From IMG/VR virus record IMGVR_UViG_3300032116_022045: 64,000 bases of DNA; one strand, given 5' to 3'. Shown one piece after another: positions 36,499 through 61,992 of the stretch. The translations under genes were made by a program, and so were the position numbers. The first letter of the stretch is position 1. Every line of letters starts with the position of its first letter. The notes under the pieces were generated by a model that was given only the letters and a program-made list of their open reading frames with translations, made no database searches and had not been told where the DNA came from. Origin of the DNA: a virus. Its lineage: Duplodnaviria; Caudoviricetes.

Positions 36499-36503
36499 CA
36501 AAA

Positions 36504-36575: not shown

Positions 36576-36593
36576 CAAAAAAAAAAATAATAT

Positions 36594-36666: not shown

Positions 36667-36671
36667 CAAAT

Positions 36672-43333: not shown

Positions 43334-43879
43334 ACATTGTAAAGATACAAGGAATATTTGACACCACCAAATAAAATGTAAAAAAAATAACAGATATTCT
43401 ATTATTTTTTTTAGGTTATTTGGATTAAAAATTAATTAGAATTTAGATAGTTCCCAAATTACTAATCCAATGATTCCGATAACACCGAATGATATTGACA
43501 ATAAGACGATGTTTTTTTCAAGTTTGTTTTCCATTGTTGTTATATTAAAGTGTGTGATTGATTTATTTTTTGAAATAGGCAAAATAACTCATAATGATAC
43601 AAGCAATTAATTCTATGACCCCTATTGACAGGATTACAGGTTCATTAAACCCAAATAGGTATAAATGATTGATTAATACGATTAGTAAATAAACACCTAT
43701 AATTGGTGCTACAATACCGACAGAAGTTAAAATACTTTTAATGTTTTTCATGATGTTGTTTTTTGTTTGACTATACAAAGATAAAACAAATATTTGATAT
43801 ATCCAAATAAAATAAAAAAAACCCCATCTTTTTACAGACAGGGTTTCTCGTTCACAACTTAACCAAAAAAAAAATTAGC

Positions 43880-43967
43880 AGTCAGGACAGGATTCGAACC
43901 TATTAGGAGTTATTGACTATTACCTCCACCGCTCACTCGGTGCGTCTACCAATTCCGCCACCTGACC
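43880..43967 (-). ncRNA. tRNA-framed RNA T1 (88 nt; Leu-like D arm, non-canonical anticodon arm)
   Basis: GGTCAGG-TG-GCGGAATTGGTAGACGC...AGGTTCGAATCCTGT-CCTGACT. Confidence 0.8.
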
Positions 43968-44119
43968 ATTTTATTTACAATACAAAGATAAAACAAATAT
44001 TTGATATATCCAAATAAAAAATAAAAAAAACCCCATCTTTTTACAGACAGGGTTTAACCTTAAAATTATTAAACTTAAAACATAATACAAAGATACAACA
44101 AATATTTGATATAATCAAA

Positions 44120-44896
44120 TTATTTGTTATAAATTTTTAATAGTTTATTAAAAATACCTTCTTCGCTTAAATGAGTTAAGTCAATACCATTTGTTGCTTC
44201 AATTGATAGGTTTTTATACATTTTACTATGTTCATACCTAATACCAATAGTAAGCATAAGACGCATAAACATTTGATTCACTTGTCTTGTAGGGGGTAAA
44301 AATCTGTGAACATCAACAAGGCAATTAAGTAAAAATTCAGCCCTTTCCCTATCTTTTATTACAAAATCACCTTTTTTAACAATTCTAACAGCAGTAGTTC
44401 TACGTTTAACTTGTAGGTAAGCCATTGGGATAACAGACGATTGAATGTGATTTCTGTAAATGTGTTTAATTGAGTTTTGAAGCGTGAAATAATCTTTATT
44501 TCCTGTTTCTTTCCAACTATTGATAAAATCATCGAATGACCATTTTTTCCCTGTGTTATTTGTATCAATCATTAATTGTACAATTTCAGTATCTGTTTTA
44601 CATTCAACAATACGACATTCAATAGGTAAATTAAGGCTTACCATTGCTCTAATTAAATGTTGTCCATCAACAACATACAATTTATTATTAGGTTTTCTAA
44701 CTAATAAAACTTGTCTTGTTTGTCCGTTTCTTTTTACCGATTCAACTAACTCTAAAACAATCTTTTGGTTAATAGGTCTGTTAAAAGGTAAGATTAACAA
44801 TGAAGCATAATCATTAACTCCAATTGTAATTGTCTTGTTTGTTTTTACTTTGTTTTTCATGTTTCTTTTTCCTTTAAGTGTTAAACAATGGGTCAA
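44120..44896 (-). CDS. ParB/Srx-like domain protein
   Basis: LYVVDGQHL motif. Confidence 0.65.
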   Translation of the reverse strand: MTHCLTLKGKRNMKNKVKTNKTITIGVNDYASLLILPFNRPINQKIVLELVESVKRNGQTRQVLLVRKPNNKLYVVDGQHLIRAMVSLNLPIECRIVECKTDTEIVQLMIDTNNTGKKWSFDDFINSWKETGNKDYFTLQNSIKHIYRNHIQSSVIPMAYLQVKRRTTAVRIVKKGDFVIKDRERAEFLLNCLVDVHRFLPPTRQVNQMFMRLMLTIGIRYEHSKMYKNLSIEATNGIDLTHLSEEGIFNKLLKIYNK

Positions 44897-45026
44897 AGTA
44901 ACTACTTTTTATTGAGAAAAACAAATTTTTGTTTAAATTTTTTTAAAAAAAATTAAATAAAAAAAAACCCCATCTTTTTACAGATAGGGTTTCTCGTTCA
45001 CAACTTAACCAAAAAAAAAAATTAGC

Positions 45027-45125
45027 AGTCAGGACAGGATTCGAACCTGTGGTAGTTAGATATTGATATCACCCTATCATCTAACCACTTCTTAGGTGAA
45101 GCAGATACCATTCCGCCACCTGACT
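45027..45125 (-). ncRNA. tRNA-framed RNA T2 (99 nt)
   Basis: Same acceptor and T arm; long variable hairpin GGTTAGAT/ATCTAACT. Confidence 0.8.
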
Positions 45126-45136
45126 ATTTTAATAAC

Positions 45137-45245
45137 TTGGACGTGCTACCCATTACACCAACCTTGGGATTCGAACCCATATCTTCGGTACAACCGACGC
45201 ATTACCCATTATGCTATCACCGAGAATCGAACTCGGACTTTCCAT
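45137..45245 (-). ncRNA. Double-elbow tRNA-like RNA (T arm, D arm, anticodon-like arm, T arm, D arm; no acceptor stem)
   Basis: See findings. Confidence 0.65.
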
Positions 45246-45249
45246 TCGT

Positions 45250-45323
45250 AGTCAGGACAGGATTCGAACCTGTAAATGAATCAGACTAATGCAGACTCTG
45301 CGATACCATTACGCCACCTGACC
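45250..45323 (-). ncRNA. tRNA-framed RNA T4 (74 nt)
   Basis: Same acceptor and T arm; irregular anticodon arm. Confidence 0.8.
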
Positions 45324-46429
45324 ATTTTATTTACAATACAAAGATACAACAAAGTTTTGATATATCCAAATAAAAAATAAAAAAAACCCCATCTTTTTAC
45401 AGACAGGGTTTCTCGTTCACAACTTAACACTAAAACAAAAACAAACAGAAATTATCTTTTATAGGCAACATAACCCATAGTAAAACACCCAATTGATTCA
45501 ACAAGACCAACCAACAAAAGTAAAGGTAACTCAAGACCAAACAACATAATATGATGAATTAATAACACCATAATAAATGTTCCAACAAACATTAAAAGAA
45601 CCCCAATTTTTTTCATAACATTTTTTTATTTACACTACAAAGATACAACAAAGTTTTGATATATACAAATAAAATTTAAAAAAACCCCATCTTTTTTTGA
45701 CAGGGTTTTTTTCTCTCTCGTTTTATATTTCTTTTGCTAATTTAATATAATCAGCAACTTCATCAGCAGAGCAATAACCTTTAACCAAATCATTACCAAA
45801 GTCATAAAATTCACCATTAGGTAAGATTATTGCTATTTCAGCATCAGACGATTCAACCATTGTTTTACCATTAGAAAAATCATAACCATCAGGATGATTA
45901 TCGTAATTATCACAATAATTACGATACCCGAATTGAACTGAAATTGTGCAACCATTTTCAAAAGTCATTTGAAAACCTTTGTTTTGTGTAATTCTGAACA
46001 TTGACATACTTTAAATTGTTTAAGTGTTTAACGATACCACAAAGATATAACAAAGTTTTGATATATCCAAATAAAATTTTTAATTTTTTTTTCACCAAGT
46101 CATTAATGCGTATGGATTGTAGTTTTGATAACGCAGTTCATTAAAAAGTGTATTAAACACATTTTTGCTAACTTTAAATGTTGTTGTGTTTTTTGTTGAT
46201 TCTTCAAACTTCAATTTTTTGTTCGGAATCATTGACTGAATCAAATCTTCGTTTTGTTTTGCGATTAGAACTATCATGTTATTTTAATTAAGTTTTTAAC
46301 GATATGACAAAGATACATAATTTATTAATACCACCGACATAAACCACCATATTTTTTTTTAACTTTTTTTTTAAAAAAATATCCTAATTAATTTTTTTAT
46401 TCCAATTATTCCTTGTATCTTTACAATGT

Positions 46430-46484
46430 AATCCAATAGGGGATTAAGGGTCGCTTGAAAAAGTGAGAGAGTATACTCCAACCT
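46430..46484 (+). ncRNA. Repeated ~55-nt structured RNA, copy 3
   Basis: Same motif. Confidence 0.65.
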
Positions 46485-46565
46485 ACATAATGTTTTTTTA
46501 TATAAAAAATAATAAAATTGAATAGATTAATCAGATTAACCTATTCAATTTCATTATATGAAATA

Positions 46566-47012
46566 TTATTTACTTCTACAAATAGGCCCTAAACCAATTT
46601 CGATACTATTTGCATCAGTTAATTTTTTGCCACAAACAAGGCAAGACCCTGTATGAAAAACCTCAATTGAATTATCCAACAAATTAAAGTTTTTCTTTTG
46701 AACATTATCTAAAGTCCATGCAATTGCTTTTGCCGAAGCGGAATCAATAATTTGTCCTTTATTGATTATTTTGCCATGCGAGAAAAAACCTAATCTAATG
46801 TAATTTTGATACTCGGTTTCAACCTTAACATGAGTGTACCAATTCCCTTTAAATAAAGAACGGCTAATTTTATAGGTATAGTCCTTACCTGTCCTAAGTG
46901 ATTTAATGGTAAATTCAGAACCATGGTTATTAGCCTCACGATTAATAACCTCAAATAACGAAGCGGATGAAATTTTGTGTGCCATATTGTTTTTGTTAAT
47001 TTGTGAACACAA
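46566..47012 (-). CDS. DUF6011-like Zn-finger protein
   Basis: CLVCGKKLTDANSIEIGLGPIC. Confidence 0.65.
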   Translation of the reverse strand: MCSQINKNNMAHKISSASLFEVINREANNHGSEFTIKSLRTGKDYTYKISRSLFKGNWYTHVKVETEYQNYIRLGFFSHGKIINKGQIIDSASAKAIAWTLDNVQKKNFNLLDNSIEVFHTGSCLVCGKKLTDANSIEIGLGPICRSK

Positions 47013-47089
47013 AGATATATAAACTAATTTAATTAAACAAGCATTTTGTAAAAAAAATTAATTAATTTTTGTTAAAAAAAATATCATGT

Positions 47090-47144
47090 AGCGTGGAGTA
47101 TACTCTCTCGCCTTGTTAGGGCAACCCTTAATCCTTATCAGATT
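47090..47144 (-). ncRNA. Repeated ~55-nt structured RNA, copy 4
   Basis: Same motif. Confidence 0.65.
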
Positions 47145-48052
47145 ACATTGTAAAGATACAAGGAATAATTGACACCACCAAATAAAATGTAAAAAAAAAC
47201 CCATCTTTTTACAGACAGGTTTTTTTGAATGGAATTATATTTTATAGTACAAAGATACTACAAATAATTGACACTACCAAATAAAATGTAAAAAAAAACC
47301 CATCTTTTTACAGACAGGTTTTTTCGTTCACAACTTAACCAAAACAAAAACTTAATTAAAAATCATCTTCATTAAAATCGTCATCATCTTCATAGTTATC
47401 ATCATAGAAATAACCTTGAAATTCGCATGATTCACAACCTGTTTCATCATACACCCAATTTTCAGGTTTCTCAACCAAATTAGGGTATTTTACACCTTTT
47501 GTACCATCACCATTCGGATTATCTTTAAAGGCGATATTAATACCTTTACTTCTCACTTCATCGGTATATTCTTCACCTTGTAAGGTTGATGTAACACCAT
47601 TCATTTCAGCGAGTAATTCATAATAATCCTTACCACCAAATACACCACAACCATCATATTCGGTTTCCACCCATTGATTACCTTTATCATCTAACATAAC
47701 CACCTTAAAAGGTTGTCTGTTTGAGTGAATGTTTGGGATACTTTTATTAGTATCCATTGTTTTCCAACTGAAAAATCCCATAACTTTAATTTTTTTTAAG
47801 TGTTTAACGATACCACAAAGATAAAACAAAATTTTGATTCTACCAAATAATTTTACAAAAAAAGTAAAATAATTTGTATCACCCTTAAAGCAATTGCAAC
47901 GATACCAATAAAGACCGCCACAAAAAAGATACCATCCTGAATTTTCTGTTCCATATTGTTTTTAATTAAATTGTGAATACAAAGATATATAAACTAATTT
48001 AATTAAACAAGCATTTTGTAAAAAAAATTAATTATAAAAAAAAATATAATAT

Positions 48053-48108
48053 AGGTTGGAGTATACTCTCTCGCCTTGTTAGGGCAACCCTTAATCCCTT
48101 ATTGGATT
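48053..48108 (-). ncRNA. Repeated ~55-nt structured RNA, copy 5
   Basis: Same motif. Confidence 0.65.
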
Positions 48109-48932
48109 ACATTGTAAAGATACAAGGAATAATTGACACTACCAAATAAAATGTAAAAAAAACCCATCTTTTTACAGACAGGTTTTTTCGTTCACAACTT
48201 AACCAAAAAACAAAAATTTTACTATTGAAATTCTATTTCAAAATCCTCCACAATTTCTTTTTGTTCATCTGTTAAAGGTTCATCTGAAATAAATTCAATG
48301 TAATACCTTGTGTAAGGGACACCCATTAAAAATTCTTCAACAGATAAATTAAATTCTTGTTTATCCCTTGCCATTATTGTTGTACCAATATGCTCTGAAC
48401 TATTTTTGTCAAAAGCAAATAACTGAACTTTAACCATGATTATTTTTTTTTAAGTGTTTAACGATACCACAAAGATACTACAAAGTTTTGATATATCCAA
48501 ATGTTTTCATTCTATATCACCTTGAATTTTTTGATAAATGTTAGCAAGGTTTAAGATATCCTGTAAACAATCAATTGATAATTCTTCATAAGTGAAAAAA
48601 TCAACAGACCTTTCATTTTCATCACCATTTAAATATAAATAACCATTAACACCATTTAACATAAATTTTTCACCAAGCATGATAGCAGAACCAAGCTCTC
48701 CAATTATAGGTGATGATTCACTTTCAACATCAAATGTTGTAAACATACCAAATTCATCAATAATATTTTTTATTGCTGAAATGATTTCATTTTTTTCTTG
48801 ATTGGTTTCCATTTTAATTATTTTTTTTAAGTGTTTAACGATACCACAAAGATAAAACAAAGTTTTGATTCTACCAAATAAAAATTAAAAAAACCCTAAC
48901 TTTTTTTTGATAGGGTTTTTTTAATTAACTTA

Positions 48933-49697
48933 TTACTTCAACCGCTTTATTATTATTAGAGCCATTGAGCAGGTATCATGATATTCAAATATTTCTTCTA
49001 TTGAATAATTGAACCCACAAACTTTTGAGAAAAATGTTTTAAAAGCGTGTATTGTTTCAATATCATTTTCATTCTTAATTAACCTTTTCATTTCACCATA
49101 AACCTTAGATGATTGACCAAGTTTATTAATTCGCTTTGATAAGGTTATTGCAACAATACCACCAACTTGCACGATATTAGCCTGAAACATACTTTTCATA
49201 TCTTCAACGATAGTACCCAATTGACAACAATAATCTAAAATAAGATGATTGTATTTGTCTTCATGTGCTGTTTCTAATTCATATCCAATATCACCCAACA
49301 TTGGATATATTGGTAATTTATGTTTTTGGATAGTTTTAAACATTTTCCAATAAACCTTTTCATCCCTTTCATATCCGATAAAACTAAATTTCTTTCCAAT
49401 TTCGGATAATATTTGCTTTTCAATATTACATTTTGAAAAGGGTAAGGATAATATTTTTCCTGAATTAAGACCGCTTTTGTAAATGTGTTTAATAATGATA
49501 TTTCTTGCTTTTTGCTTACCATTCCCATTTTCATTATTAAATGCCCCTACACTCTTTTTAATTCCTTTTTTCTTACGATAAGCAATTAAATTTGCTGATG
49601 CCCTTTGTTTGCTAAGCCCAAATTGTTTAACCAATTTTGAATTTGTCGCATAAGGATTGTTTTTAATCCATTCTTGAATTTCTTGTTTTGTTACCAT
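48933..49697 (-). CDS. Possible SAM-dependent methyltransferase-fold protein with an N-terminal HTH-like segment
   Basis: ILSLP...FIGYERD...LILDYC pattern; weak. Confidence 0.35.
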   Translation of the reverse strand: MVTKQEIQEWIKNNPYATNSKLVKQFGLSKQRASANLIAYRKKKGIKKSVGAFNNENGNGKQKARNIIIKHIYKSGLNSGKILSLPFSKCNIEKQILSEIGKKFSFIGYERDEKVYWKMFKTIQKHKLPIYPMLGDIGYELETAHEDKYNHLILDYCCQLGTIVEDMKSMFQANIVQVGGIVAITLSKRINKLGQSSKVYGEMKRLIKNENDIETIHAFKTFFSKVCGFNYSIEEIFEYHDTCSMALIIIKRLK

Positions 49698-49854
49698 TGT
49701 GTTAAATTGTTTAATTGTAAAACGATATGCAAAGATAGGACTTATTTTGATACCACCAACAAAAAACCAAAATTATTTTTAATTAATTTTAACTTTTTTT
49801 TCTTGCAATTGTCAATAATTGGTTATACTTTTGTAATGACATTTTTTAATCACT

Positions 49855-50034
49855 ATGGAATTAAATAAAGCAGTTGAAATCTTAATGCACAACCACCGAT
49901 TCAAATTGGGTAAAACAAGTGAACAAAATTTCACACCTCAAGAAATTAATCGTGCAATGAATGTATTAAGCCACTATAACGAAACACAACGGAGATTGAA
50001 TACCTACGAGAAAAAAAATCTTAATTGTGGATAA
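49855..50034 (+). CDS. 59-aa protein MELNKAVEILMHNHRFKLG..., against the orientation of the region
   Basis: Manual translation; TACTTTTG -7 box upstream. Confidence 0.5.
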   Translation: MELNKAVEILMHNHRFKLGKTSEQNFTPQEINRAMNVLSHYNETQRRLNTYEKKNLNCG

Positions 50035-50098
50035 ATAAATTCAAAATTTATCCTAATTAATTTTTTTATTCCGATTATTCCTTGTATCTTTACAATGT

Positions 50099-50152
50099 AA
50101 TCTGATAAGGATTAAGGGTCGCTTGAAAAAGTGAGAGAGTATACTCCAACCT
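50099..50152 (+). ncRNA. Repeated ~55-nt structured RNA, copy 6
   Basis: Same motif. Confidence 0.65.
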
Positions 50153-50634
50153 GGCTTTTATTTTTTTATATAAAAAATAATTATTTCATAAATTGAATTA
50201 TTTAATTTATTAATTAATACGAAAAATGAATAATAAGGTTGATAGAATATCTACCAACCTTATTATTTTTTAATTTGATTATTTACGTTTTGTAAATATA
50301 TCAAATGTAGCAGTTATACCAATAAAATATTTATCAATATCAATTGAATCACCGCCACAACCACAATCGCACCCTAATTTAATTTCGTACTTTTTAATGT
50401 ACTTAATTAAATCAATTCCGCTAATAATATCATCTAACGGAATTTCAGTAAAGGTTGAATAAATTTCTAACCTCTTTTTAATCGTTTTGTTTTTCAGGTA
50501 GTTTGTCATAATGTTATTTTAATTAAGTGTTGAACGATGATGCAAAGATATGTATTATTTCAATACCCCCGACATAAATTAAAAAAAAAACCCTATCTTT
50601 TTTTGATAGGGTTTCCAACCAATTAACCCACTAT

Positions 50635-51102
50635 TTAATACCTCTCTTTAAATTCAAGCAATATCTTATTTTCCCAACTTTTATGTGCTTGACATCTACA
50701 CGCCCTTTTTACCTCTTTTAATTTAATCCTTGCCTTTTCGTATGTTTCACCACAACCGCCACAAACCGCAAAGTATTTTAATTTAGGCGTATTAACTTTA
50801 TCTGAATCATAACATCTCTCAGGTTTTGCACCTATCTTAATACAAACCAATTTCCACTGATAACCATGATGGGCTTTAAACCCTGCAATAGCATGGGCAA
50901 TTTCATGTAGGATTGTATCTTTGACTATTTCAAGGTCATTTAAACGAGTTAAATGCTTTGACAATTGAATAGACTTGTTTCCATAGGAACAAACGCCAAA
51001 CGCCCTTAAATGATTGTTAAATTCAAAACGCCAACCCAATTCCCAAATACCATGTTGTTTCATTAAAGAAACCGCCAAATTTTCTGCAACTGATAATTCC
51101 AT
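50635..51102 (-). CDS. SprT-like zinc metalloprotease
   Basis: DTILHEIAHA...HHGYQWK...IGAKPERC; C-terminal CxxC. Confidence 0.85.
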   Translation of the reverse strand: MELSVAENLAVSLMKQHGIWELGWRFEFNNHLRAFGVCSYGNKSIQLSKHLTRLNDLEIVKDTILHEIAHAIAGFKAHHGYQWKLVCIKIGAKPERCYDSDKVNTPKLKYFAVCGGCGETYEKARIKLKEVKRACRCQAHKSWENKILLEFKERY

Positions 51103-51238
51103 AATGTTTATTTTAATTAAGTGTTAAACGATAAGGCAAATATAGGGAATATATTAATACCACCGACATAAAATTAAAAAAATATTTTTTTTCTTAATTG
51201 TTTGGAATTGTCAAATATTGGTTGTAATTTTACAATGT

Positions 51239-51291
51239 AATCTGATAAGGATTAAGGGTCGCTGACAAAGTGAGAGAGTATACTCCAACCT
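51239..51291 (+). ncRNA. Repeated ~55-nt structured RNA, copy 7
   Basis: Same motif. Confidence 0.65.
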
Positions 51292-51437
51292 GGCTTTTAT
51301 TTTTTTTATATATAAAATTAATACGAAAAATGAATTATTTAATTATATTAATAATACGAAAAATGGAATATATTAAAATAAAATAATAAGGTTGATAGAA
51401 TATTCCATCAACCTTATTATTTCAGATTCCGTACTAT

Positions 51438-51998
51438 TTAAAGTTCCAAAGTTTCACCATTGGCACGAATTTCCCCAACATTATCTAATACATATTGGGT
51501 ATATTTCGATGTCCGTAGTAACTTACGAATTTCATCCTTTGCAATTGTCAAAGGTCTTGACTTAACCACAGGATAAACACCATCCTGTAAAATAGTCTTG
51601 TTTTGGCGATAACCATAAACATAAACCTTTCCAGATTCATTATGAACCTTAACACCATCTACAATGGCTGTATAAGCCTCAATTTGCCCTTGGCTACGAT
51701 TCTCATTAGGATTCTCAAAAGATTCAATTAAGGCTTGTTTAGCCTCAATTAACAGAGCCTTAGCCGACTTAAATTCAAATTCATTTGAATCCAAATCTAA
51801 ATGTTTCAAAAACTCAATATCTCTTTCCTTAGCCTTAGAATAGGATGCACCAACGTTAATAAGGTGATTGGCAATTTCACCATATTTGTTAGTGTACTTA
51901 CGGATTGAAACAAATGTTACATTTGTTTTACTTGTTGCCTTTTTCAAGGCTACAACCACATCTAATGCGGTTGATTTTGTTACTTGCGTACTTTCCAT
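51438..51998 (-). CDS. Early hypothetical protein, copy B
   Basis: Paralog of 40847-41407. Confidence 0.85.
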   Translation of the reverse strand: MESTQVTKSTALDVVVALKKATSKTNVTFVSIRKYTNKYGEIANHLINVGASYSKAKERDIEFLKHLDLDSNEFEFKSAKALLIEAKQALIESFENPNENRSQGQIEAYTAIVDGVKVHNESGKVYVYGYRQNKTILQDGVYPVVKSRPLTIAKDEIRKLLRTSKYTQYVLDNVGEIRANGETLEL

Positions 51999-52200
51999 AA
52001 ATGAATTAGTTAAGAGTGAAATTTAATAGTACAAAGATATAGGTTATTTCAATACCACCGACAAACAAAACCACATTTTTATCCACATATTTATCCACAA
52101 TTAATCATAAGAATATGTTAATAAGTGTGTTGATAAATAGGTTAAAAATTTATCTTAATTAATTTTTTTATTCCAATTATTCCTGGTATCTTTACAATGT

Positions 52201-52255
52201 AATCTGATAAGGATTAAGGGTTGCCCTGACAAGGCGAGAGAGTGTACTCCAACCT
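52201..52255 (+). ncRNA. Repeated ~55-nt structured RNA, copy 8
   Basis: Same motif. Confidence 0.65.
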
Positions 52256-52600
52256 GGCTTTTATTTTTTTTATATAAAAAAATAATACGGATTTTGAATT
52301 ATTTATATTTTAAATAATACAATTATTGAAATATATATTTCGTAAATTGAATTATATAATTATTGTATATTATAGTATATTAAATTATTTCAATAATTAA
52401 AATATATATTTCGTAAATTGAATTATCTATTTATTGTATATTAATAATTTTAAATAATTTTTATATTTTAAATTATATCCAATATGTAATATTTTATTTA
52501 TTGAAGTATTTACTTTATATATTTTATATGTTATATATATTATATATTAATATACATTATAATAATTAATATATACACAATTGTGTATAATATATTAACT

Positions 52601-52970
52601 TAAATTAAGATAATCACCAATATCAATAAACTAAGTTAATACTAATTGCCAGAATCATCATAAACCCTATTTTTAGCCTGTCTGTTAAACTTTAATCGTA
52701 AAATGATATGTAGATATGGAATTAATAAAATAATTCAATACAAGGCAAAAAAAAGGGAATTGTTACATTCCCTTTTTAATTTAATTAAGATAATTACCAA
52801 CATCAAAAAACTAACTTAATACTAATTCCCAGAATCACCATAAACCCTATTTTTAGCCTGTCTGTTAAACTTGAATTGTAAAATGATAGATAGATACGGA
52901 AATAATAAGATAATTCAATACAAGGCAAAAAAAAAGGGAATTGTTACATTCCCTTTTTTAATTTAATTAA
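52601..52970. repeat. Two tandem ~180-bp repeats, each with a terminator hairpin
   Basis: Period 180 (52601 and 52781); AAAAAAGGGAAT-TGTTAC-ATTCCCTTTTT in both. Confidence 0.85.
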
Positions 52971-52978
52971 ACCTAAGT

Positions 52979-53899
52979 TTAATTTGTGGCGAAAATTAAT
53001 TCATGTGCCTTGGCGTTCATTTCACTTGCTGAAGCATAAAGTAATTTTTCAATGTTACCCTTTGCAAGTTCATGAGTAGTATATCGAGTAATACCCTGTA
53101 ATAGGCTGAAAGCATTATTACCTGTATTTTGCATCTCAATAGCAATTGAGTTATTTACAGAATCTAAGATATTACGGGAACGAGTGGTAAGGTCTGAATA
53201 AGCCTTAACATCATACCCTGTAAGTTTAGTTAAAAACTTATCAATATCGGATTGAGTAATTTGCTTTAAGGTAGCATCATTCAAACAATTAACATAATTT
53301 TCAGTCATTGAAATAACTTTGAAAATTTCATCTGTGAATGTCATCACCTTTGCTTGGTTTTTTGTTGTATTTTTCATAGAAATAGCAACATCCTTTTGCC
53401 AATTTTTTGCACCATTGGTGCACCATAGGCGAAGAGCATAGAACCCTAATGAAATTTTTGTCATACCATCAAATCCTGTACGAAATTCCAAAGCGGTTTC
53501 AAGGGTATCACCTACCATAGGAGTTTTAATTTCATATTTTTTCAAAGGTAATCTGAAAACAACCTTACCACCACCATAGTATTCATGATATGTTAATTTA
53601 TTCAAATCAACATCAGCATTTGAACTAAGGACTGAATGTTCAATTGCATCTAAAAACAATTGAAGATTCATTGGTTCAAATACATCCCCAACGATACCTA
53701 ACGCATCACCACCCGTATTTTTGTAAATACCGAATGATTTAGGTGAATTAAATCCCTCCATACCTGTATGAAGTTGGATTTTTTTAGCGGTTAATACCTG
53801 ACTTTTCAGGTTATTAATGTGGTTTCCGCTTGACTGAATGTTAGTTAAAATGTCCATGTGTTTATTTTGATTAGAGTTAAACATGGCACAAAGATACAA
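52979..53899 (-). CDS. DUF932/DUF945-family phage protein
   Basis: LGIVGDVFEPMN...GFDGMTKIS...LRLWCTNG...GNNAFSLLQGITRYTTH. Confidence 0.75.
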   Translation of the reverse strand: MYLCAMFNSNQNKHMDILTNIQSSGNHINNLKSQVLTAKKIQLHTGMEGFNSPKSFGIYKNTGGDALGIVGDVFEPMNLQLFLDAIEHSVLSSNADVDLNKLTYHEYYGGGKVVFRLPLKKYEIKTPMVGDTLETALEFRTGFDGMTKISLGFYALRLWCTNGAKNWQKDVAISMKNTTKNQAKVMTFTDEIFKVISMTENYVNCLNDATLKQITQSDIDKFLTKLTGYDVKAYSDLTTRSRNILDSVNNSIAIEMQNTGNNAFSLLQGITRYTTHELAKGNIEKLLYASASEMNAKAHELIFATN

Positions 53900-53986
53900 C
53901 CATTTTTTTAATTAGCAATACCCTAACAAACTTTTTTTTAATTAATTTAGAAATTTAGAATCATTCTAAATAAAAAGACCCTTTAC

Positions 53987-54066
53987 TATATATATATATA
54001 TATATATATAATAAAGGGAATCTACCAGCATGAATCTACCAGCATGAATCTACCAGCATGAATCTA
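53987..54066. repeat. (TA)n microsatellite followed by 3.5 copies of the 14-mer GAATCTACCAGCAT
   Basis: Read directly from the sequence. Confidence 0.9.
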
Positions 54067-54593
54067 ATTGTTTTTTAATTAAAATAAAATAACCTGAATC
54101 GACTTAATTTAAATAAGTTAATTCAGGTTAGATTAAAGATATGAAAGTTAATTAATACTATTTTGTTTTTAATGGTAAATCTTCCCATGATTTAATTAGC
54201 ATTTTTTCTCCGTTTATTCTAGGATATAGTGAGCATGATTCCATACCAACACCAATTATTATTTTATCTAAATCTATATTAGTAAGATTAGGATAATCTA
54301 AATCTTTAATTTTACCTTCATTGTTAATAAGTAAAACAATTAATTGAAGTTTATAAAGCTCTAGTGTTTCTTTTAGTTTTTTATTTTCTTCAATTAGTTC
54401 ATTTAATTCCTTTGCAAAATCTTTAATATTCATATTTTTTTCTTTAAGTTATTACAAAGGTAAGAAAAGATTTTTTAATCTGCAAAGGTTATTTTAATTA
54501 TTTTTTCAAGTTAATTAAAATAAATGTACACATTTGTGTACTAAAAAAAAGGTAGGTTATTAGCCTACCTTTTTATTTTAATTAGATTATTTG

Positions 54594-55313
54594 TTAATCA
54601 TTCATGATAACAAATCCATTCTTAAGTGCATTCTTGTTTATTATTGAAGCACCTTTATTTGTTGCTTTTTTGTACTTTAAACCAACAACAACACCACTAC
54701 CATCATTAAATCTAAGGTCATTTTCGTCACCATTAATTACTTTAAATCCTTTGTAGGTTTTTGGTAGTTTATTAAATACATAGGCAACATTAAATCCTTT
54801 TTTAAGTAATTTTTCAGCCAGTTTATCATTTGTTTCATCTCTTGAGAAAGTTAAATGATAATTTTTTGGTAAGACCTTTGTAAATCTTTTATGATTTTTT
54901 GTGTAGTCATAAAACTGAATATTCGGAAATAATTCAAATATTGTTTTATCATCAAAGATTTTAACATTTTCAAAAGGAATATCAGAAGTTCCGTTTAATC
55001 TAACTACAGGAATCATATTATCTTTTTTACCTGAAATTTCCAATAATTCAGAATAAAGTTTAAACATGAAAGCCTTTCTGTTAGTTAAAAATAACTCAGT
55101 TCGGTTAATCCTACCTTGTTGAATTTTGGTAAACATACCTCCCATACCTGAAAAGAATAAACAAGCCTCGGAACAACCTTTTGAAGCGTTTGGGCAAAGA
55201 TTTTTACCTTTGGAATTGTTTTTGTAAGGGGAAAGATACATAATATATGTACGATAACCCTTTTTTTCGCCTTTGATAGTTTTGGCATTGTTTGTTGAAA
55301 GCAAATTACTCAT
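54594..55313 (-). CDS. GP88-family protein (Cys-cluster, radical-SAM-like)
   Basis: CPNASKGCSEACL...RLNGTSDI...QFYDYTK...YHLTFS...GDENDLRF. Confidence 0.75.
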   Translation of the reverse strand: MSNLLSTNNAKTIKGEKKGYRTYIMYLSPYKNNSKGKNLCPNASKGCSEACLFFSGMGGMFTKIQQGRINRTELFLTNRKAFMFKLYSELLEISGKKDNMIPVVRLNGTSDIPFENVKIFDDKTIFELFPNIQFYDYTKNHKRFTKVLPKNYHLTFSRDETNDKLAEKLLKKGFNVAYVFNKLPKTYKGFKVINGDENDLRFNDGSGVVVGLKYKKATNKGASIINKNALKNGFVIMND

Positions 55314-55369
55314 AATGTTTTTTTTTGTTTAATTGTTAAACGACACCACAAAGATAAAACAAAATTTAA

Positions 55370-55996
55370 TTATTTCCAAACAAAACCTGAAAATTCTTTT
55401 TTGCCAAAATGTTTTTTAAAACATATTGAAATAAATTCAACGTGTGATGTCCCCATATCAATATTTTCTATTACCTTAACTCTCTTATTATTTTCATAAT
55501 AACCTATTCTACCACTCATATAATTACGACACTTAGATTGAGTTATCCACTCCTGTTTAACAAAAAATTGAGCAAATGCCCCATTTTTTTTATCGTTTTT
55601 GTAGGTTGTAATATCTGTAATAAAACTATCCCAAAATAACCAAATACCATCTCTTTTACCATTATTAAAAGAGCCTTTAACCGCTATCCCATCAGGGTTT
55701 AATAATGATGTTACACCACGTGTATATTCAAAAAAATCACCACATAAACGACCATTAACCCAATTAGTTTTTTGTCTTAATTGATTATGATGAGTGTATT
55801 CTATCCATTCACCATGTTTTTTACCATTTTCGTAAGTACCCTCTAAAATGGTTGAAATTGTTTTATAGAAATGGTAATTTTCATTAATAATATGGGGAAC
55901 ATATCTCCATTCACCATGTTTTTTACCATTTAAAAAATCACCAAAACCAATAACATTAATTGTTTCTCCATGTGTTTTAAGTTTTTCAATAACCAT
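55370..55996 (-). CDS. MORN-repeat (YwqK-like) protein, divergent
   Basis: GKKHGEW repeats. Confidence 0.7.
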   Translation of the reverse strand: MVIEKLKTHGETINVIGFGDFLNGKKHGEWRYVPHIINENYHFYKTISTILEGTYENGKKHGEWIEYTHHNQLRQKTNWVNGRLCGDFFEYTRGVTSLLNPDGIAVKGSFNNGKRDGIWLFWDSFITDITTYKNDKKNGAFAQFFVKQEWITQSKCRNYMSGRIGYYENNKRVKVIENIDMGTSHVEFISICFKKHFGKKEFSGFVWK

Positions 55997-56120
55997 AATT
56001 AATTTTGTTAATTGTTAAACGATGTCACAAAGATAAAACAAATAATTTATATCTCCAAATAAATTTATAAAAAAAACCCTATCCGTTGCAGATAAGGTTT
56101 TTTTCCTCTTTCGTTTTAAT

Positions 56121-57528
56121 TTATTCTTTTATTCTTAACTTATCCACATCAATACCTAACTTACTTGCAATATCACTTAAAGTTAATTCAATTAACTTTG
56201 GTTCATCAGGATTATAATCAACTTGCTTTCCCATGTCATAATAACCTTTAGACCATAATTGACCATTATCATAATATTCTTCCCATGAACCATGTTTTTT
56301 ACCATTAACGTAGTTACCTTTATAAGATAATTGACCATTAGAATAATAGGATTCACATGAACCATGTCTGTAACCATTTACATAGTTTCCTTTAAAACAT
56401 AATTTACCATTAGACCAATAGTCTTCACAATAACCATGTCTTTGACCATTAACATAGTTCCCTTTAAAATATAATTGACTATTATCATGATAGCCTTCCC
56501 AATAACCATGTCGTTCACCTTTTTCATTATAAAGGTTAATTAAATTTTCTTTTCTGATTTCTGAAGTGTTCATTTCTTTTTTTTTTGTTTATGATGCAAA
56601 GATATAACAAATAATTTAATCTACCAAATTATTTTTTATTCCTTTATTCTTAACTTATCCACATCAATACCTAACTTACTCGCTATTTCATTTAAACTTA
56701 ATTCAATTACCTTTGGTTCATCAGGATTATAATCAACTTGCTTACCCATGTCATAATAAGCTTTATACCATAATTGACCATCAGAAGAATAGGATTCCCA
56801 ATAACCATGTTCATTACCATCTACATAGTTACCTTTATAAAATAATTTACCATTAGACCAATAGTCTTCCCAATAACCATGTCGTTTATCATTAACATAG
56901 TTTCCTTTACACAATAATTGACCATTATCAAAATAGGATTCCCAATAACCATGTAGTTTACCATCAACATAGTTTCCTTTATACCTTAATTGACCATTAG
57001 ACCAATATACTTCCCATAAACCATGTCTTTCACCTTTTTCGTTATAAAGGTTAATTAAATTTTCTTTTCTGATTTCTGAAGTGTTCATTTTTCTTTTTGT
57101 TTATGATACAAAGATAAAACAAAGTTTTGATTCTACCAAATTATTTTTTATTCTTTTATTCTTAACTTATCCACATCAACACCTAACTTACTTGCAATAT
57201 CACTTAAAGTTAATTCAATTAACTTTGGTTCATCAGGATTATAATCAACTTGCTTACCCATGTCATAATAACCTTTATAACATAATTGACCATTATACCA
57301 ATAGTCTTCCCAATAACCATGTTCTTTACCATTAACATAGTTTACTTTATACCATAATTTACCATTAGAATAATATCTTTCCCAATAACCATGTCTTTGA
57401 CCATTAACAAAGTTTCCTTTATAACATAATTGACCATTAGACCAATAGTCTTCCCAATAACCATGTCGTTCACCTTTTTCGTTATAAAGGTTAATTAAAT
57501 TTTCTTTTCTGATTTCTGATGTATTCAT
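56121..57528 (-). CDS. Three MORN-repeat paralogs (56121-56573, 56636-57088, 57148-57528; 4, 4 and 3 repeats)
   Basis: Shared MNTSEIRKENLINLYNEKG N-cap, 24-aa repeats and conserved C-cap. Confidence 0.88.
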
Positions 57529-58196
57529 TTTTCTTTTTGTTTATGATGCAAAGATATAATAAAGTTTTGATATATTCAAAATATTATTTTAATTTTGCCA
57601 ACCATGCTGAATCATTAGTTGTTGCTATTGAAAATAATTCATGTATTTGCTCTTGGGTCATATCTTTTAATCTAAGTTCACCATAACTTTTTAGATATGA
57701 ATCTAAGTTATCATCTTTCCATTCAAGAAGATAATGTCTAATTCTACTTGGTAGTGTTTGGAAATATGTTTGTTGATTTTCCATTTTAATTAATTTGGTT
57801 TATTTCAAGACCTTGTGTTTGATTAATTAAATTTAAATTATCAAAATCTGTTTCGGTTAGATTATATCCATCGAATTCATTTGATGCTTTAATTGCTTTT
57901 TGTTTTTCATCAAAGGCACCTATCAGGTTATATGAATTTTTTGAGTGGTGTTCATCTGTGCTGAATAGGATGTAAATATATTTGTTCATTTTGGTTTAAT
58001 TAAAATGATGTACACATTTGTGTATGTTTTCTGTTGTAGATTTTCTTTGATGGTTTTGTTTTTGTAACCATTTTTCTACGAATAATTTGAGTAATATGTC
58101 TATCGGTCAAACCTTGTTTCCAATCATGTTTCGTTTTCATAATGCAAAGATAAAACAAATATTTGATACCACCAAATAAATTTTAATTTTTTTTGT

Positions 58197-58337
58197 TGTC
58201 AGGACAGGATTCGAACCTGTATGAATTTCTTACATTACCAGCCTATAACGAGTAATTATTCTGCCGTTTCCAAGAGTATTTCTCTATAGTTAAGAACTCT
58301 TTTAACATCAGCGTCTGCTCAATTCCGCCACCTGACT
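58197..58337 (-). ncRNA. tRNA-framed RNA T5 (141 nt)
   Basis: Same frame with a long insert in place of the anticodon/variable arms. Confidence 0.8.
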
Positions 58338-58341
58338 AGGT

Positions 58342-58476
58342 TTAGTTCTTAAATATCGAAATTAGCAAAGAGATTATCTCTAGCCATCCAATTACGCCAA
58401 AGAATATGTAAGGCAATCTGAAATCATCCCATGCTGGTTTCTTGAATAAAAAAATAACTTTTAGAGCTTCTGCCAT
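58342..58476 (-). CDS. 44-aa membrane peptide (MAEALKVIFLFKKPAW...) between tRNA-framed RNAs
   Basis: Manual translation; hydrophobic C-terminal half. Confidence 0.45.
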   Translation of the reverse strand: MAEALKVIFLFKKPAWDDFRLPYIFFGVIGWLEIISLLISIFKN

Positions 58477-58490
58477 AATTTGTTTTTAGT

Positions 58491-58561
58491 AGTCAGGACA
58501 GGATTCGAACCTGTGCATTCATTGATATCATCTCATTGCTCTACCACTGAGCTACCTGACT
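58491..58561 (-). ncRNA. tRNA-framed RNA T6 (71 nt; defective anticodon stem)
   Basis: AGTCAGG-TA-GCTCAGTGGTAGAGC...ACAGGTTCGAATCCTGT-CCTGACT. Confidence 0.8.
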
Positions 58562-58565
58562 GATT

Positions 58566-58655
58566 GAGGATGAGAAGTCCTCCGTGTTGTAGAAGATTAC
58601 ACATCTATTCTTCTCTTTGCATTCCAGTTTCATTCCTTTCTCAAGGGAACAACAC
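58566..58655 (-). ncRNA. Companion structured RNA K1 (kissing-loop candidate)
   Basis: GTGTTG/CAACAC; TTCC-CTTGAGAAA-GGAA; GAGGA-CTTCTCA-TCCTC. Confidence 0.65.
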
Positions 58656-58659
58656 AAGT

Positions 58660-58786
58660 AGTCAGGACAGGATTCGAACCTGTATAAAAGACAAGCAGTT
58701 AGCCCTCACGATTGTAAGAGGGTTAGGGATTATGTCTATTCCCACATTTAACATACCACTGCGTATACCAATTCCGCCACCTGACT
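58660..58786 (-). ncRNA. tRNA-framed RNA T7 (127 nt)
   Basis: Same frame; the insert has two hairpins. Confidence 0.8.
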
Positions 58787-58790
58787 ATTT

Positions 58791-58872
58791 GAGGATGAGA
58801 AGTCCTCTGTGTTGTAGGGTTTCCTCCATTTGCCCTATATGGTATTAAATTCCTTTCTCAAGGGAACAACAC
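58791..58872 (-). ncRNA. Companion structured RNA K2
   Basis: Same ends as K1, different middle. Confidence 0.65.
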
Positions 58873-58906
58873 ATTTCTCAACCATCCACCTGATGAATGA
58901 TTGATA

Positions 58907-59296
58907 TTACTTTTTATCTAAGTCAAAATAATACTCATCTTCTTCTTGCCTATACCACGCACCCGTACACGCATCAACAATCAAACTCGGTAAGCCAAAA
59001 AAGTTTACATAAGGCACAAAACACATCCCGATATTGCCAATCAAATACCCTGGACGAATCTGTCTTTGCGTCTTAATTTGAGCATTCTCATACCCTTCCG
59101 CCTTGACAATGATAGTGTTACGCTTCTTTACAGGAACTTCAGCAGTACAACTTCCCTCTCCTACCTTGTTCCCATTCACATAAACTTTAGCATGGTCAGG
59201 TTTTACATTGATAGTTACTTCCTGCTTCATGCTTGAAGTAATTGTGGCACAGCTTGTTAATAAAGCTAATGCAATAATAGCAAAAATACTTTTCAT
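58907..59296 (-). CDS. PEGA-domain lipoprotein
   Basis: Lipobox LLTSC; VKPDHAKVYVNG and VKAEGY. Confidence 0.75.
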   Translation of the reverse strand: MKSIFAIIALALLTSCATITSSMKQEVTINVKPDHAKVYVNGNKVGEGSCTAEVPVKKRNTIIVKAEGYENAQIKTQRQIRPGYLIGNIGMCFVPYVNFFGLPSLIVDACTGAWYRQEEDEYYFDLDKK

Positions 59297-59603
59297 TTTT
59301 TGTTTTAATTAAAGTGTTAATACTGATTAGCATCGGGTTTTTAAAACCTCAATTTCTTTTTGAATTCTTGTAACTTCAGAATCCGTGAGTTTTACTCTAC
59401 TATCTGTACTTTTACCAGAATCATCTTTAATAGATACTCTTTTAAATCCAGATTGTAACTGATTTTCTAAACGCTCGATTACTCTTTTGCGTCTTGCCTG
59501 TGCAGGCTTTGTCATTGAATGATTTACTCCATTATGTTTTCTCATAACTTTATAGTAATAAAAATTGTTTCTACACTTCTAGGTAGTAGAATTCACCTAT
59601 AGC

Positions 59604-59722
59604 AGTCAGAACAGGATTCGAACCTGTAGTGTAGGGAGTGGAGACCTTCCAACTTTATTATTATAACCTCCACATTCTGTTTTTTTGTTGCCCCATAGCG
59701 TCTACCATTCCGCCACCTGACT
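59604..59722 (-). ncRNA. tRNA-framed RNA T8 (119 nt)
   Basis: Same frame with one G:U variant. Confidence 0.8.
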
Positions 59723-59725
59723 ATT

Positions 59726-59874
59726 TTGTTCCTTATTCTCTTACCACTTTATATCGGAACAAACCTGCTTATCTATCAAAGTGTACTCCAAATACTGACA
59801 CCTGCTTTAGTGGGTGTACCATATACGAATATGACTCCTCTCTGAACAATACGATTTTCTCAAGGGTACAGGTT
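59726..59874 (-). ncRNA. Companion structured RNA K3 (divergent, enlarged)
   Basis: AACCTG/CAGGTT; TACC-CTTGAGAAA...GGTA; directly follows a promoter. Confidence 0.5.
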
Positions 59875-60207
59875 GTTATTTAATTACATAACAAAGATAC
59901 AAATTGTTTTTGAAATAAACAAATTTAAACCTCAATTATTTGACAATAATCAGCCAAATCTACCAAAGGTATTCTACCATAATCTCTTGAAGAATAATAC
60001 CCTTGTTCCTCATAGCGTTTTTTCCATGTTTCAAATGATTCAAACGCTTTTTTTCTTGATGGATATGTTTCATTAAATGAAATTGTGAAACCATCAGGAC
60101 TTAATACATTGTACTTTTTTCGTGCCATTTCCTTTATGTTTTAAATGATGATACAAAGATAAAACAAAGTTTTGATTCTACCAAATTATTTTTTCATTCT
60201 TTTATCC

Positions 60208-61146
60208 TTAACTTATCCACATATTAGCAATATCAGTTAAAGTTAATTCAACTATCTTTGGTTCATCAGGATTATAATCTACTTTCTTACCCATGTCATA
60301 ATAACCTTTAGAACATAATTGACCATTACCCCAATAGGATTCCCATGAACCATGTTCTTTACCATTAACATAGTTTCCTTTATAAGATAATTTACCCGTA
60401 TCATGATATTGTTCCCAATAACCATGTCTGTTATCATTAACATAGTTTCCTTTAGAACTTAATACACCATTAGAAAAATATTCTTCCCAATAACCATGTC
60501 TTTTACCATTAACATAGTTTCCTTTAAACATTAATTGACCATTATTCCAATAGTATTCCCAATAACCATGTTCATTACCATTAACATAGTTTCCTTTAGA
60601 ACTTAATTGACCATTAGAATAATACCATTCCCAATAACCATGTCTGTTATCATTAACAAAGTTTCCTTTACGCCATAATTGACCATTAGGATAATAGTCT
60701 TCCCAATAACCATGTCGTTCACCTTTCTCATTATAAAGGTTAATTAAATTCTCTTTTCTGATTTCTGAAGTGTTCATTTTTCTTTTTGTTTATGATGCAA
60801 AGATATAATAAAGTTTTGATTCTACCAAATTATTTTTTTATTCCTTTAGCCTTAACTTATCCACATCAATCCCTAACTTATTAGCAATATCAGTTAAAGT
60901 TAATTCAATTATCTTTGGTTCATCAGGATTATAATCAACCTGTTCGCCCATGTCATAATAGCATTTATAATATAATTCACCATTAGAAAAATAGAATTCC
61001 CAATAACCATGTAGTTTACCATCAACATAGTTTCCTTTATACCTTAATTGACCATTATTCCAATAGGCTTCCCAATAACCATGTCGTTTACCTTTTTCAT
61101 TATAAAGGTTAATTAAATTCTCTTTTCTGATTTCTGAAGTGTTCAT
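60208..61146 (-). CDS. Two MORN-repeat paralogs (60208-60777 with 6 repeats and a frameshifted C-cap; 60838-61146 with 2 repeats)
   Basis: Same caps; 13-nt deletion (AAGTTAGGGATTG relative to the siblings) in the first. Confidence 0.88.
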
Positions 61147-61275
61147 TTCTTTTTTTCTTTAATGTGTTAAACAATGATACAAAGATATAACAAAGTTTTG
61201 ATTCTACCAAATATTTTTAAAAAAAACCCTATCTTTTTTCAAAGATAAGGCTTCCAACTATGATAGACAAAATTT

Positions 61276-61920: not shown

Positions 61921-61992
61921 GTTTCTTTTCCTTTAATGTGTTAAACGATAAGGCAAAGATAAAACAACTATTTGACACTACCAAATATTTTT

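Follow-up and report, generated by a model that had tools for sequence, protein, structure and literature searches.

A widespread family of phage RNA elements with a constant tRNA-Leu-like frame and exchangeable inserts

Seven tRNA-framed elements in a phage genome

We analysed a 64,000-nt stretch, hereafter the window, of the virus record IMGVR_UViG_3300032116_022045 from IMG/VR (Duplodnaviria; Caudoviricetes), a jumbo phage from lake water. Its minus strand carries exactly seven elements in which the frame of a tRNA surrounds an insert, here called the cargo, with total lengths of 72–142 nt (75, 100, 89, 120, 128, 72 and 142 nt for elements 1 to 7). A preliminary description of this DNA had already proposed seven minus-strand elements with a common acceptor stem and T arm, placing the start of each at what is its position 72, and both frame searches and a covariance model bear this out. 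The 3' frame GGTTCGAATCCTGTYCTGAC occurs in seven exact copies, all on the minus strand (0.00 expected in 100 shuffles), and the 5' frame RGTCAGGTRGC likewise occurs in seven exact minus-strand copies, each paired with a 3' frame (0.41 expected in shuffles). The covariance model R1, built from members of the family described below and run with filters off, recovered the same seven elements and nothing further in 64 kb. The generic Rfam tRNA model placed five of the seven over its threshold, and a sixth, element 3, reached 33.1 bits in a local search.

All seven elements have in common an acceptor stem (A/G)GTCAGG/CCTGAC(T/A) and a T arm ACAGG-TTCGAAT-CCTGT. Several hallmarks of decoding tRNAs are thus present, namely a 7-bp acceptor stem, a D arm with G18G19 and a T arm with a loop of the T-psi-C type. 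The D arm is of the leucine type, TGGCG(G/T)AAT(T)GGTA..CGC, in six of the seven, as the preliminary description had it, and of the class-I type in the element at 58561-58490. The leucine-type D arm and the tertiary core of a class II tRNA-Leu (U8-A14, A15-U48, G18G19) are thus both present, the exception being 58561-58490 with its class-I D arm. A canonical anticodon arm, with a 5-bp stem, a 7-nt loop, U33 and R37, is lacking in six of seven and borderline in the element at 45125-45026; the earlier statement that no element has a canonical anticodon stem and loop therefore holds for those six and fails for 45125-45026, which keeps a near-canonical hairpin with the loop CTAAGAA. The discriminator base is A in four elements and G in three. 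None of the seven encodes CCA, again as first described, and every one is followed by C74 and then A or T. When folded without constraints, the shorter elements adopt the cloverleaf frame.

The elements differ widely in what they carry. Element 1 (45249..45323, minus strand, 75 nt, discriminator A) holds a short imperfect hairpin and scores 67.6 bits with model R1 and 46.2 bits with the Rfam tRNA model. Element 2 (45026..45125, minus strand, 100 nt, discriminator G) combines a variable-arm hairpin of about 35 nt with an anticodon-like hairpin of four pairs plus U-U, whose loop CTAAGAA provides U33, the anticodon AAG and A37; it is the only one of the seven with a leucine-type triplet and could conceivably be an aberrant tRNA-Leu(AAG). 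Element 3 (43879..43967, minus strand, 89 nt, discriminator G) has a 4-bp hairpin with a 6-nt loop, a variable-arm hairpin and a T stem ATAGG/CCTGT with a U-G pair. Element 4 (59603..59722, minus strand, 120 nt, discriminator G) ends in the 3' frame CCTGTTCTGACT and is the only window element whose cargo has homologues elsewhere among the loci collected (100% identity in locus L163 and 97% in L230). The cargo of element 5 (58659..58786, minus strand, 128 nt, discriminator A) gives way to different cargos at the corresponding place in these two relatives. Element 6 (58490..58561, minus strand, 72 nt, discriminator A) is the one with the class-I type D arm, TAGCTCAGTGGTAGAGC. Element 7 (58196..58337, minus strand, 142 nt, discriminator A) has an A1-A72 mismatch and the longest cargo, about 90 nt; its 5' end lies 4 nt past the stop codon of a 44-codon open reading frame (ORF).

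The phage also has ordinary tRNA genes, and these lie apart from the elements, as had been noted at the outset: the true tRNAs are on the plus strand at 36088-36745, where ARAGORN called four (36088-36667). A fifth, borderline tRNA at 36674-36745 reached 29.4 bits with the Rfam tRNA model. On the minus strand, ARAGORN made three odd calls: one of undetermined type with a 2-nt anticodon, a Cys-GCA on element 1 (45323-45249) and a Ser-TGA on element 6 (58561-58490). The Cys-GCA and Ser-TGA types were assigned on mismatched stems, with loops that lack R37 or U33 (the latter in element 6).

Transcription units and neighbouring genes

The promoter form of Bacteroidota, TTTG-N17-21-TAnnTTTG, occurs at 39 sites in the window compared with 6.2 expected, nearly all of them on the minus strand before the small genes of the 42-64 kb region. 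Three such promoters serve the seven elements. The first, at 45339..45370 (minus strand), ends 15 nt upstream of element 1 and heads a unit that consists of element 1, a spacer RNA, element 2 and a strong intrinsic terminator (44962..44995, minus strand). The second, of the same type, at 43983..44014 (minus strand), ends 15 nt upstream of element 3, which is likewise followed by a strong intrinsic terminator (43816..43849, minus strand). The third, at 59892..59923 (minus strand), heads an operon in the order leader RNA, element 4, two ORFs, a leader module, element 5, a second module, element 6, an ORF and element 7. The last three elements (58786-58659, 58561-58490 and 58337-58196) have no promoter of their own and lie inside this operon, whose ORFs comprise 72 codons, 129 codons (with a PEGA domain) and 44 codons, so that four of the seven elements share a promoter with protein genes. 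The preliminary description had invoked early host-type promoters. As far as the motif goes, the host type is supported, with three promoters for the seven elements; early transcription of the elements is what such a motif would suggest.

The surroundings of the elements are similarly stereotyped. On the minus strand of 42000-64000, a promoter of about 32 nt, TTTGG(T/A)..A(A/T)TCAAA...TTTGTT.TATCTTTG, precedes nearly every small gene, and the terminator module GAGAAACCCTRTCTGTAAAAAGATGGGGTTTT is repeated at 45381-45414, 44962-44995, 44028-44055 and 43816-43849. A gene of the ParB-like nuclease/partition family (44120-44896, minus strand; PHROG 12305, E 4e-17) lies exactly between elements 2 and 3 and has a promoter and a terminator to itself. 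Farther along, at 55370-62541 on the minus strand, lie at least five paralogous genes with MORN_2 repeats (56121-56573, 56636-57088, 57148-57528, 60208-60777 and 61993-62541), each with a copy of the stereotyped promoter. The neighbouring proteins (ParB-like nuclease, MORN_2 repeat proteins, SprT-like, DUF932 and GP88) are uninformative about the RNAs, and the phage collection that we searched contained no close annotated relative of this phage.

A large family of frames with unrelated inserts

We collected related elements with an exact 22-mer covering the T arm and the 3' strand of the acceptor stem. Exact matches were found in at least 120 IMG/VR contigs, some of which have up to eight copies within 3.4 kb, and near-complete phage genomes (113-271 kb) have one to five copies each. 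Among the matches listed, the 5' strand of the acceptor lies within 260 nt in 150 of 166, giving elements 54-182 nt long; fuzzy matching extended this set to 337 distinct elements in 254 loci, with an exact acceptor stem in 246; and clustering of the inserts split 168 elements into 143 clusters and a larger set of 208 cargos into 169, or about 170 unrelated inserts. Searches of 185,579 species genomes returned the frame in 23 contigs of metagenome-assembled genomes, mostly from freshwater Bacteroidota (Chitinophagia, Flavobacterium and Saprospiraceae), and in no isolate genome. This distribution argues that the frame is neither a host tRNA nor an attachment site and, judged from these searches, it is phage-specific. 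Literature searches by sequence and by concept returned no description of the family, which is very large and, as far as we could find, apparently undescribed. To its record the present analysis adds flank statistics, the pattern of stem substitutions, swaps at an orthologous locus, breakpoints at the window locus and two types of companion module.

The family at large bears on whether the elements could after all decode, as functional tRNAs made unusual by introns or by oversized variable arms. Such a reading could draw on element 2, which has a loop of canonical format within a class II architecture, and on the five elements that pass the Rfam tRNA threshold. However, a usable anticodon arm is missing in six of seven, the inserts are below the length of group I introns, and the smallest members of the family have loops of 3-4 nt or no arm at all and so cannot decode. 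ARAGORN called a tRNA in only 37 of 192 frame matches, with scattered and often impossible anticodons, some of 2 or 4 nt. We consider decoding extremely unlikely as an explanation of the elements and, by sequence criteria, the evidence excludes it for at least six of the seven. Intron-bearing tRNAs were likewise rejected as a candidate, since minimal members have no anticodon arm that splicing could restore.

A few members (in L040, L062, L115 and other loci) do keep a plausible leucine anticodon loop, such as CTTAAGT, which caps an extended stem in L073, L082 and L115. Such members may represent a transition from a real phage tRNA-Leu to a chassis that has lost its anticodon.

Constraints on the tRNA frame and its flanks

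Positions of the tertiary core that lie outside the search word show that the frame is constrained as an RNA. U8 is kept in 96% of family elements, A14 in 87% and U48 in 85%, together with A15 and G18G19, and A73 is present in 150 of 172 members. Among the isotypes, the D arm most resembles that of the bona fide tRNA-Leu genes present in the same loci. Variants in the acceptor and T stems are mostly G-U pairs or compensated doubles (AGTTAGG/CCTAACT and AGCAAGG/CCTTGCT in the acceptor; GCAGG/CCTGC, AGAGG/CCTCT and ACAAG/CTTGT in the T stem), and mismatches are rare except at pair 1-72. This substitution pattern indicates that the RNA helix is under selection. In part of the family the D arm is of class I, and in part the cargo lies within the D loop, which suggests that the truly invariant part is the minihelix of acceptor and T arms together with the elbow. 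These are the parts of a tRNA that RNase P, RNase Z and the CCA-adding enzyme read.

The flanks of the elements are also those of tRNAs. U occupies position -1, where it is the base preferred by bacterial RNase P, in 81% of elements, and C74 is present in 97%, with A or T as the next base and A after that. Canonical tRNAs of the same loci (n=208) have U(-1) in 146 and C74 in 192, with essentially no encoded CCA. The elements thus appear to carry the maturation signals of these phages' real tRNAs, which fits the earlier suggestion that RNase P and RNase Z process them. Only 1 of 14 large contigs encodes a CCA-adding enzyme, so maturation would be carried out by host enzymes. A search for frames followed by CCA in metagenome contigs gave 88 contigs, in all of which the match is internal and encoded CCA occurs at roughly the chance rate, which makes the result uninformative about RNA ends. 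RNA sequencing runs share 17% or less of their words with 58196-58790, which is equally uninformative about expression. As an observation on the canonical tRNAs themselves, C74 followed by A or T in place of CCA (window 36088-36745 and related contigs, 192 of 208) is a shared and unusual 3' convention.

A frame of this kind could in principle be charged. In this case, the elements would be tRNA-Leu mimics that receive first CCA and then leucine, and whose effect is exerted through LeuRS, EF-Tu, the ribosome or enzymes that depend on aminoacyl-tRNA. The identity set of bacterial LeuRS (A73, U8-A14, A15-U48, G18-U55 and G19-C56) is kept whole in the frame, the prevalence of A73 being part of it, and the anticodon arm is dispensable for leucylation (PMC2377443). 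Against this, three of the seven window elements have G73, a change that lowers leucylation 143-fold in the Aquifex system (PMC2377443); element 6 has a non-leucine D arm; and charging leaves the diversity of the cargos unexplained. We regard leucylated mimics as quite unlikely.

Conservation and exchange of cargo

The cargo takes the place of tRNA positions 26 to 47 and is 18-144 nt long, with a median of about 50 nt. In 32 pairs of elements with homologous cargo, identity within the cargo is mostly 80-100% (range 0.41-1.00), whereas that of the 80-nt flanks is 55-60%, the level of unrelated AT-rich DNA. For pairs with the same cargo in different loci, neither flank is shared in 60 of 96. Cargos also fold somewhat more stably than their shuffled counterparts (mean z -0.59, n=169, p ~1e-11). 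On these comparisons, the cargo is selected or transferred as a unit and is not drifting.

The behaviour of the cargo also speaks to the possibility that the elements are mainly punctuation marks or stabilisers. Like mascRNA or the punctuating tRNAs of mitochondria, they would then attract RNase P and RNase Z by their tRNA shape, so that early polycistronic transcripts are cleaved and the neighbouring modules and mRNAs are freed, and the cargo would be incidental. In favour of this, three small ORFs and two leader modules lie among elements 4-7 in a single operon; many loci alternate element, module and element with joints of 3-8 nt; and the flanks are those of real tRNAs. An incidental cargo should drift, however, and yet the cargos are 80-100% conserved in unrelated flanks and are swapped as units. 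Moreover, elements 1-3 lie in units without an ORF, and a minimal element of 54-70 nt would suffice for cleavage, whereas the median cargo alone is about 50 nt. Punctuation as the main function of the elements is therefore unlikely in our estimation.

Exchange of cargo is seen at an orthologous locus that is bordered by the same two genes in seven contigs (L025, L055, L073, L082, L102, L111 and L115). Here, one frame holds five unrelated cargos, while the upstream flanks are 87-94% identical and the downstream flanks mostly 80-94%. The window locus provides breakpoints. L230 is 98.4% identical to window positions 59626-58760, and this homology ends at the junction of 5' frame and cargo in element 5, after which a different cargo follows. 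On the upstream side, L230 contains an additional small ORF and one more tRNA-framed element, within whose T arm homology resumes. In L163, the two ORFs are missing, element 4 (99% identical) abuts the leader module, and the module is followed by an element whose cargo matches that of the unrelated L102. Breakpoints at this locus thus coincide with the constant frames.

Breakpoints within the frames raise the question of whether the elements function as RNA at all. They could be decaying tRNA pseudogenes, or the frames could be sites of recombination or homing at the DNA level for selfish cassettes. Besides the breakpoints between relatives, this is favoured by genes for GIY-YIG and T5orf172 endonucleases near the elements, in about ten loci each, and clustering of homing endonucleases with tRNA genes is known from phages (PMC13096335). 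Stem substitutions that are G-U or compensated are, by contrast, the signature of an RNA, and neither the upkeep of tertiary-core positions that no search selected nor that of tRNA-type flanks is expected of such sites. For pseudogenes in particular, the preliminary description had reasoned that frame and inserts should decay equally fast. We clearly do not see this, as the frame is constant and undecayed while the cargos differ completely, and the comparative evidence excludes pseudogenes. The absence of any RNA function is, overall, very unlikely.

The protein neighbourhood is heterogeneous across the family. No protein family lies within ~7 kb of the elements in more than 17 of 144 loci, the most frequent neighbours being DUF932 (17 of 144 loci), terminase and the two endonuclease families already mentioned. 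With no consistently linked protein partner, the elements would depend on factors of the host. Rfam searches also found known RNAs in some loci away from the elements, namely tRNA, tmRNA and GOLLD. The last is a fragment that ends at the contig edge (L189, 1-145, 129.6 bits), and phage tmRNAs lie at 2254-2658 of L168 and 1142-1462 of L194; these are freshwater contigs that carry the modules described here.

Companion RNAs with constant ends

Two further kinds of RNA with constant ends accompany the elements, and another companion, a spacer RNA, lies between elements 1 and 2. The leader module has the form GTGTTGT, TCCCTTGAGAAAGGA, a variable stretch of 30-80 nt, ACAACAC and a hairpin (G/A)AGG..TTCTCA..CCT(C/T), and a tRNA-framed element or a real tRNA begins 2-8 nt past its end. 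Copy 1 in the window (58789..58872, minus strand; GTGTTGT...ACAACAC and a hairpin with the loop TTCTCA) ends 2 nt before element 5, and copy 2 (58564..58655, minus strand), of the same type with a different middle, lies between elements 5 and 6. An exact 22-mer of the module is present in at least 120 viral contigs and in none of 401 Bacteroidota genomes, and the module is absent from Rfam. Its hairpin stem covaries (GAGG/CCTC versus AAGG/CCTT), and a loop TTGAGAA is complementary to the loop TTCTCA, with which it is predicted to pair. A second form of the leader module continues differently, and in L168 and L194 the phage tmRNA gene lies downstream of it.

The leader RNA before element 4 (59723..59885, minus strand) has the conserved ends CCTGTACCCTTGAGAAAATCG... 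and ...AAGCAGGTT..GGTAAGAGAATAA and, after the tRNA frame and the leader module, adds a third case of constant ends, here around a middle that is optional. Its ends recur in eight loci (L014, L058, L062, L086, L169, L233, L247 and L320), and in several of these a 73-nt middle is missing. The spacer RNA between elements 1 and 2 (45126..45248, minus strand) is predicted to belong to the same transcript as these elements and is built of a T arm, a D arm, a mini-hairpin, a second T arm and a second D arm; its middle reaches 33.6 bits as a tRNA that lacks the acceptor stem. A homologue in L215 is 76% identical, likewise lies between two frames and has compensatory changes in four helices, and a pattern scan found the spacer in two viral contigs only. 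Taken together, these RNAs suggest that constant ends with a variable middle are a general habit of non-coding RNAs in these phages.

A predicted scaffold for exchangeable RNA cargo

The preliminary description had proposed that the elements are non-decoding and that a constant tRNA frame displays variable RNA. The comparative evidence agrees: hundreds of phage elements retain the frame, and the inserts are unrelated to one another, conserved or transferred as units and swapped at orthologous loci. The explanation that we favour, and to which we assign about an even chance, is that the elements are non-decoding scaffolds derived from tRNA-Leu, that they are matured like tRNAs and that they display exchangeable cargo as a diversifying repertoire that likely acts in trans.

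In this model, the genes would derive from those for class II tRNA-Leu, and the chassis would consist of the acceptor/T minihelix with the elbow formed by the D and T loops. Host RNase P would mature the 5' end, RNase Z or exonucleases would mature the 3' end, and the host CCA-adding enzyme would then complete the RNA, which the chassis would probably also stabilise. The functional cargo would be the RNA that stands in place of the anticodon and variable arms or, in occasional members, within the D loop. Recombination within identical frame sequences of 25-27 nt would exchange cargo between phages and loci and leave each phage with a set of its own. The cargos would most likely act in trans on factors of the host or of rival phages, as decoys, aptamers or antisense RNAs with short seeds, and form a repertoire in an arms race. 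Whereas the family and its exchanges can be read from the genomes, processing, stability and action in trans are properties that we infer. The cargos probably have a diversifying, anti-host function in conflict, because the orthologous loci of near-identical phages are hypervariable, the cargo pool is shared, each genome has several different copies and the promoters are strong.

A more specific idea within the same setting, also raised in the preliminary description, is that the elements are decoys or competitive inhibitors of defence nucleases that target tRNAs (Septu/PtuAB, PARIS, PrrC/RloC-like, Schlafen-like or Cas12a3-like). The enzyme would dock on the constant body, and the abnormal lower half would resist cleavage or trap it. 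This would account for the upkeep of a complete tRNA body, for the several copies per phage, which have strong promoters or lie inside tRNA arrays, and for a hypervariability among near-identical phages that is typical of counter-defence loci. It also has a precedent in a nuclease of the matching class, as the frame is of class II and Septu cuts the variable loop of class II tRNA-Tyr (PMC13096335). A decoy should, however, copy the host tRNA under attack, and the frame matches no host tRNA. The dissimilarity of most cargos to anticodon or variable arms further weakens the idea of anticodon-nuclease decoys, and some 170 unrelated cargos far exceed what the known tRNA nucleases would call for. 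We therefore consider decoys for such nucleases improbable as the general explanation.

Several observations weigh against the scaffold with exchangeable cargo. Conservation of the 3' frame is partly by construction, given that the 22-mer used to collect the family lies within it. The stem sequence is nearly invariant to a degree that structure alone leaves unexplained, and a sequence-specific partner or homogenisation at the DNA level may be the real constraint. Covariation within cargos is thin, with one compensated pair in the largest cluster (seven members). Searches for targets were also negative: no antisense match of at least 15 nt to a cargo was found outside other elements in 1.28 Mb of family loci, including the window, and the comparison with Bacteroidota genomes that the preliminary description had proposed for finding antisense targets yielded neither a target nor a sequence of host origin for cargo 7 and 58196-59900 in 401 genomes, in which matches were at chance level apart from the generic D arm of element 6. 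Rfam searches at permissive thresholds (window and 30 loci) gave no family other than tRNA in the elements and otherwise noise below threshold. Comparison of the cargos with one another likewise returned no antisense matches and no common motif beyond occasional T-loop hairpins.

A broader picture is possible, and we offer it tentatively, as somewhat doubtful. Phages of freshwater Bacteroidota may maintain a plug-and-play system of RNA display that comprises the tRNA-Leu chassis and at least two other scaffolds with constant ends, in which the frames serve as recombination connectors and cargos from a shared pool are shuffled as a hypervariable counter-defence repertoire, the RNA counterpart of islands of anti-defence proteins.

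To our knowledge, the tRNA fold has so far served as a general carrier of other RNAs only at the bench. If expression and maturation follow the prediction, phages use it in this way as well, and the elements, at least several hundred in number, would constitute a large and unexplored reservoir of small structured RNAs shaped by selection in the conflict between phage and host. The family also has practical consequences, as tRNA finders label some of its members Cys, Ser, Leu and so on, which inflates counts of phage tRNAs and can create false signals of codon usage or recoding. Finally, constant ends with a swappable middle provide a concrete, testable case of very short homology arms organising the mosaicism of phage genomes.

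Comparison with known systems

Several natural RNAs combine parts of a tRNA with another function. Similar to the elements, tmRNA has a tRNA-like domain of acceptor and T arm and a large functional insert in place of the anticodon arm. It differs in its G3-U70 alanine identity, lack of a D stem, pseudoknots and tag ORF, whereas the elements have U-A at pair 3-70 and a full D arm, and the Rfam tmRNA model has no match in the window. YrlA and other bacterial Y RNAs use the elbow of T arm and D arm as a module in a non-decoding RNA, but in permuted order (T arm, hairpin, D arm), within a Ro-binding stem and with a link to Ro60; the YrlA model (RF02553) reached 26.1 bits, far from its gathering threshold of 69, and only in the spacer region at 45168-45267. 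In the C4 antisense RNA of P1 and P7, the tRNA-miRNA hybrids of gammaherpesviruses and mascRNA, a tRNA-like fold recruits RNase P or RNase Z to release a small functional RNA. There, the tRNA-like part either adjoins the functional RNA or is only a loose mimic, whereas here the cargo lies inside a complete tRNA frame, without a match to these RNAs in Rfam.

Together with tmRNA and phage RNAs matured by RNase P, the closest functional analogues are rnaC (species 1) and rnaD (species 2) of phage T4, stable non-decoding RNAs from a phage tRNA cluster, of which rnaC ends with a T arm and a terminal stem. They are not homologous to the elements (with model R1, rnaC scored 14 bits, confined to its T arm, and rnaD gave no match), lack a D arm and do not form a family with swappable cargo. 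The closest natural relative is the class II tRNA-Leu of bacteria and phages (RF00005), with which the elements share the 7-bp acceptor stem, the leucine-type D arm, the canonical T arm, the U8/A14/A15-U48/G18G19 core, a discriminator that across the family is mostly A73 and the same gene flanks. Unlike tRNA-Leu, most elements have no anticodon arm and carry unrelated cargo at positions 26 to 47, and their acceptor and T stems are nearly invariant across very different phages and form a frame that matches no host tRNA. In design, the nearest analogue, identical in principle, is the engineered tRNA scaffold for recombinant RNA expression (Ponchon and Dardel; see PMC3753655), in which an RNA of interest replaces the anticodon arm and the chimera is processed and protected as a tRNA. 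That scaffold is a laboratory construct, whereas the phage elements are natural and widespread, and some of them carry cargo in the D loop as well.

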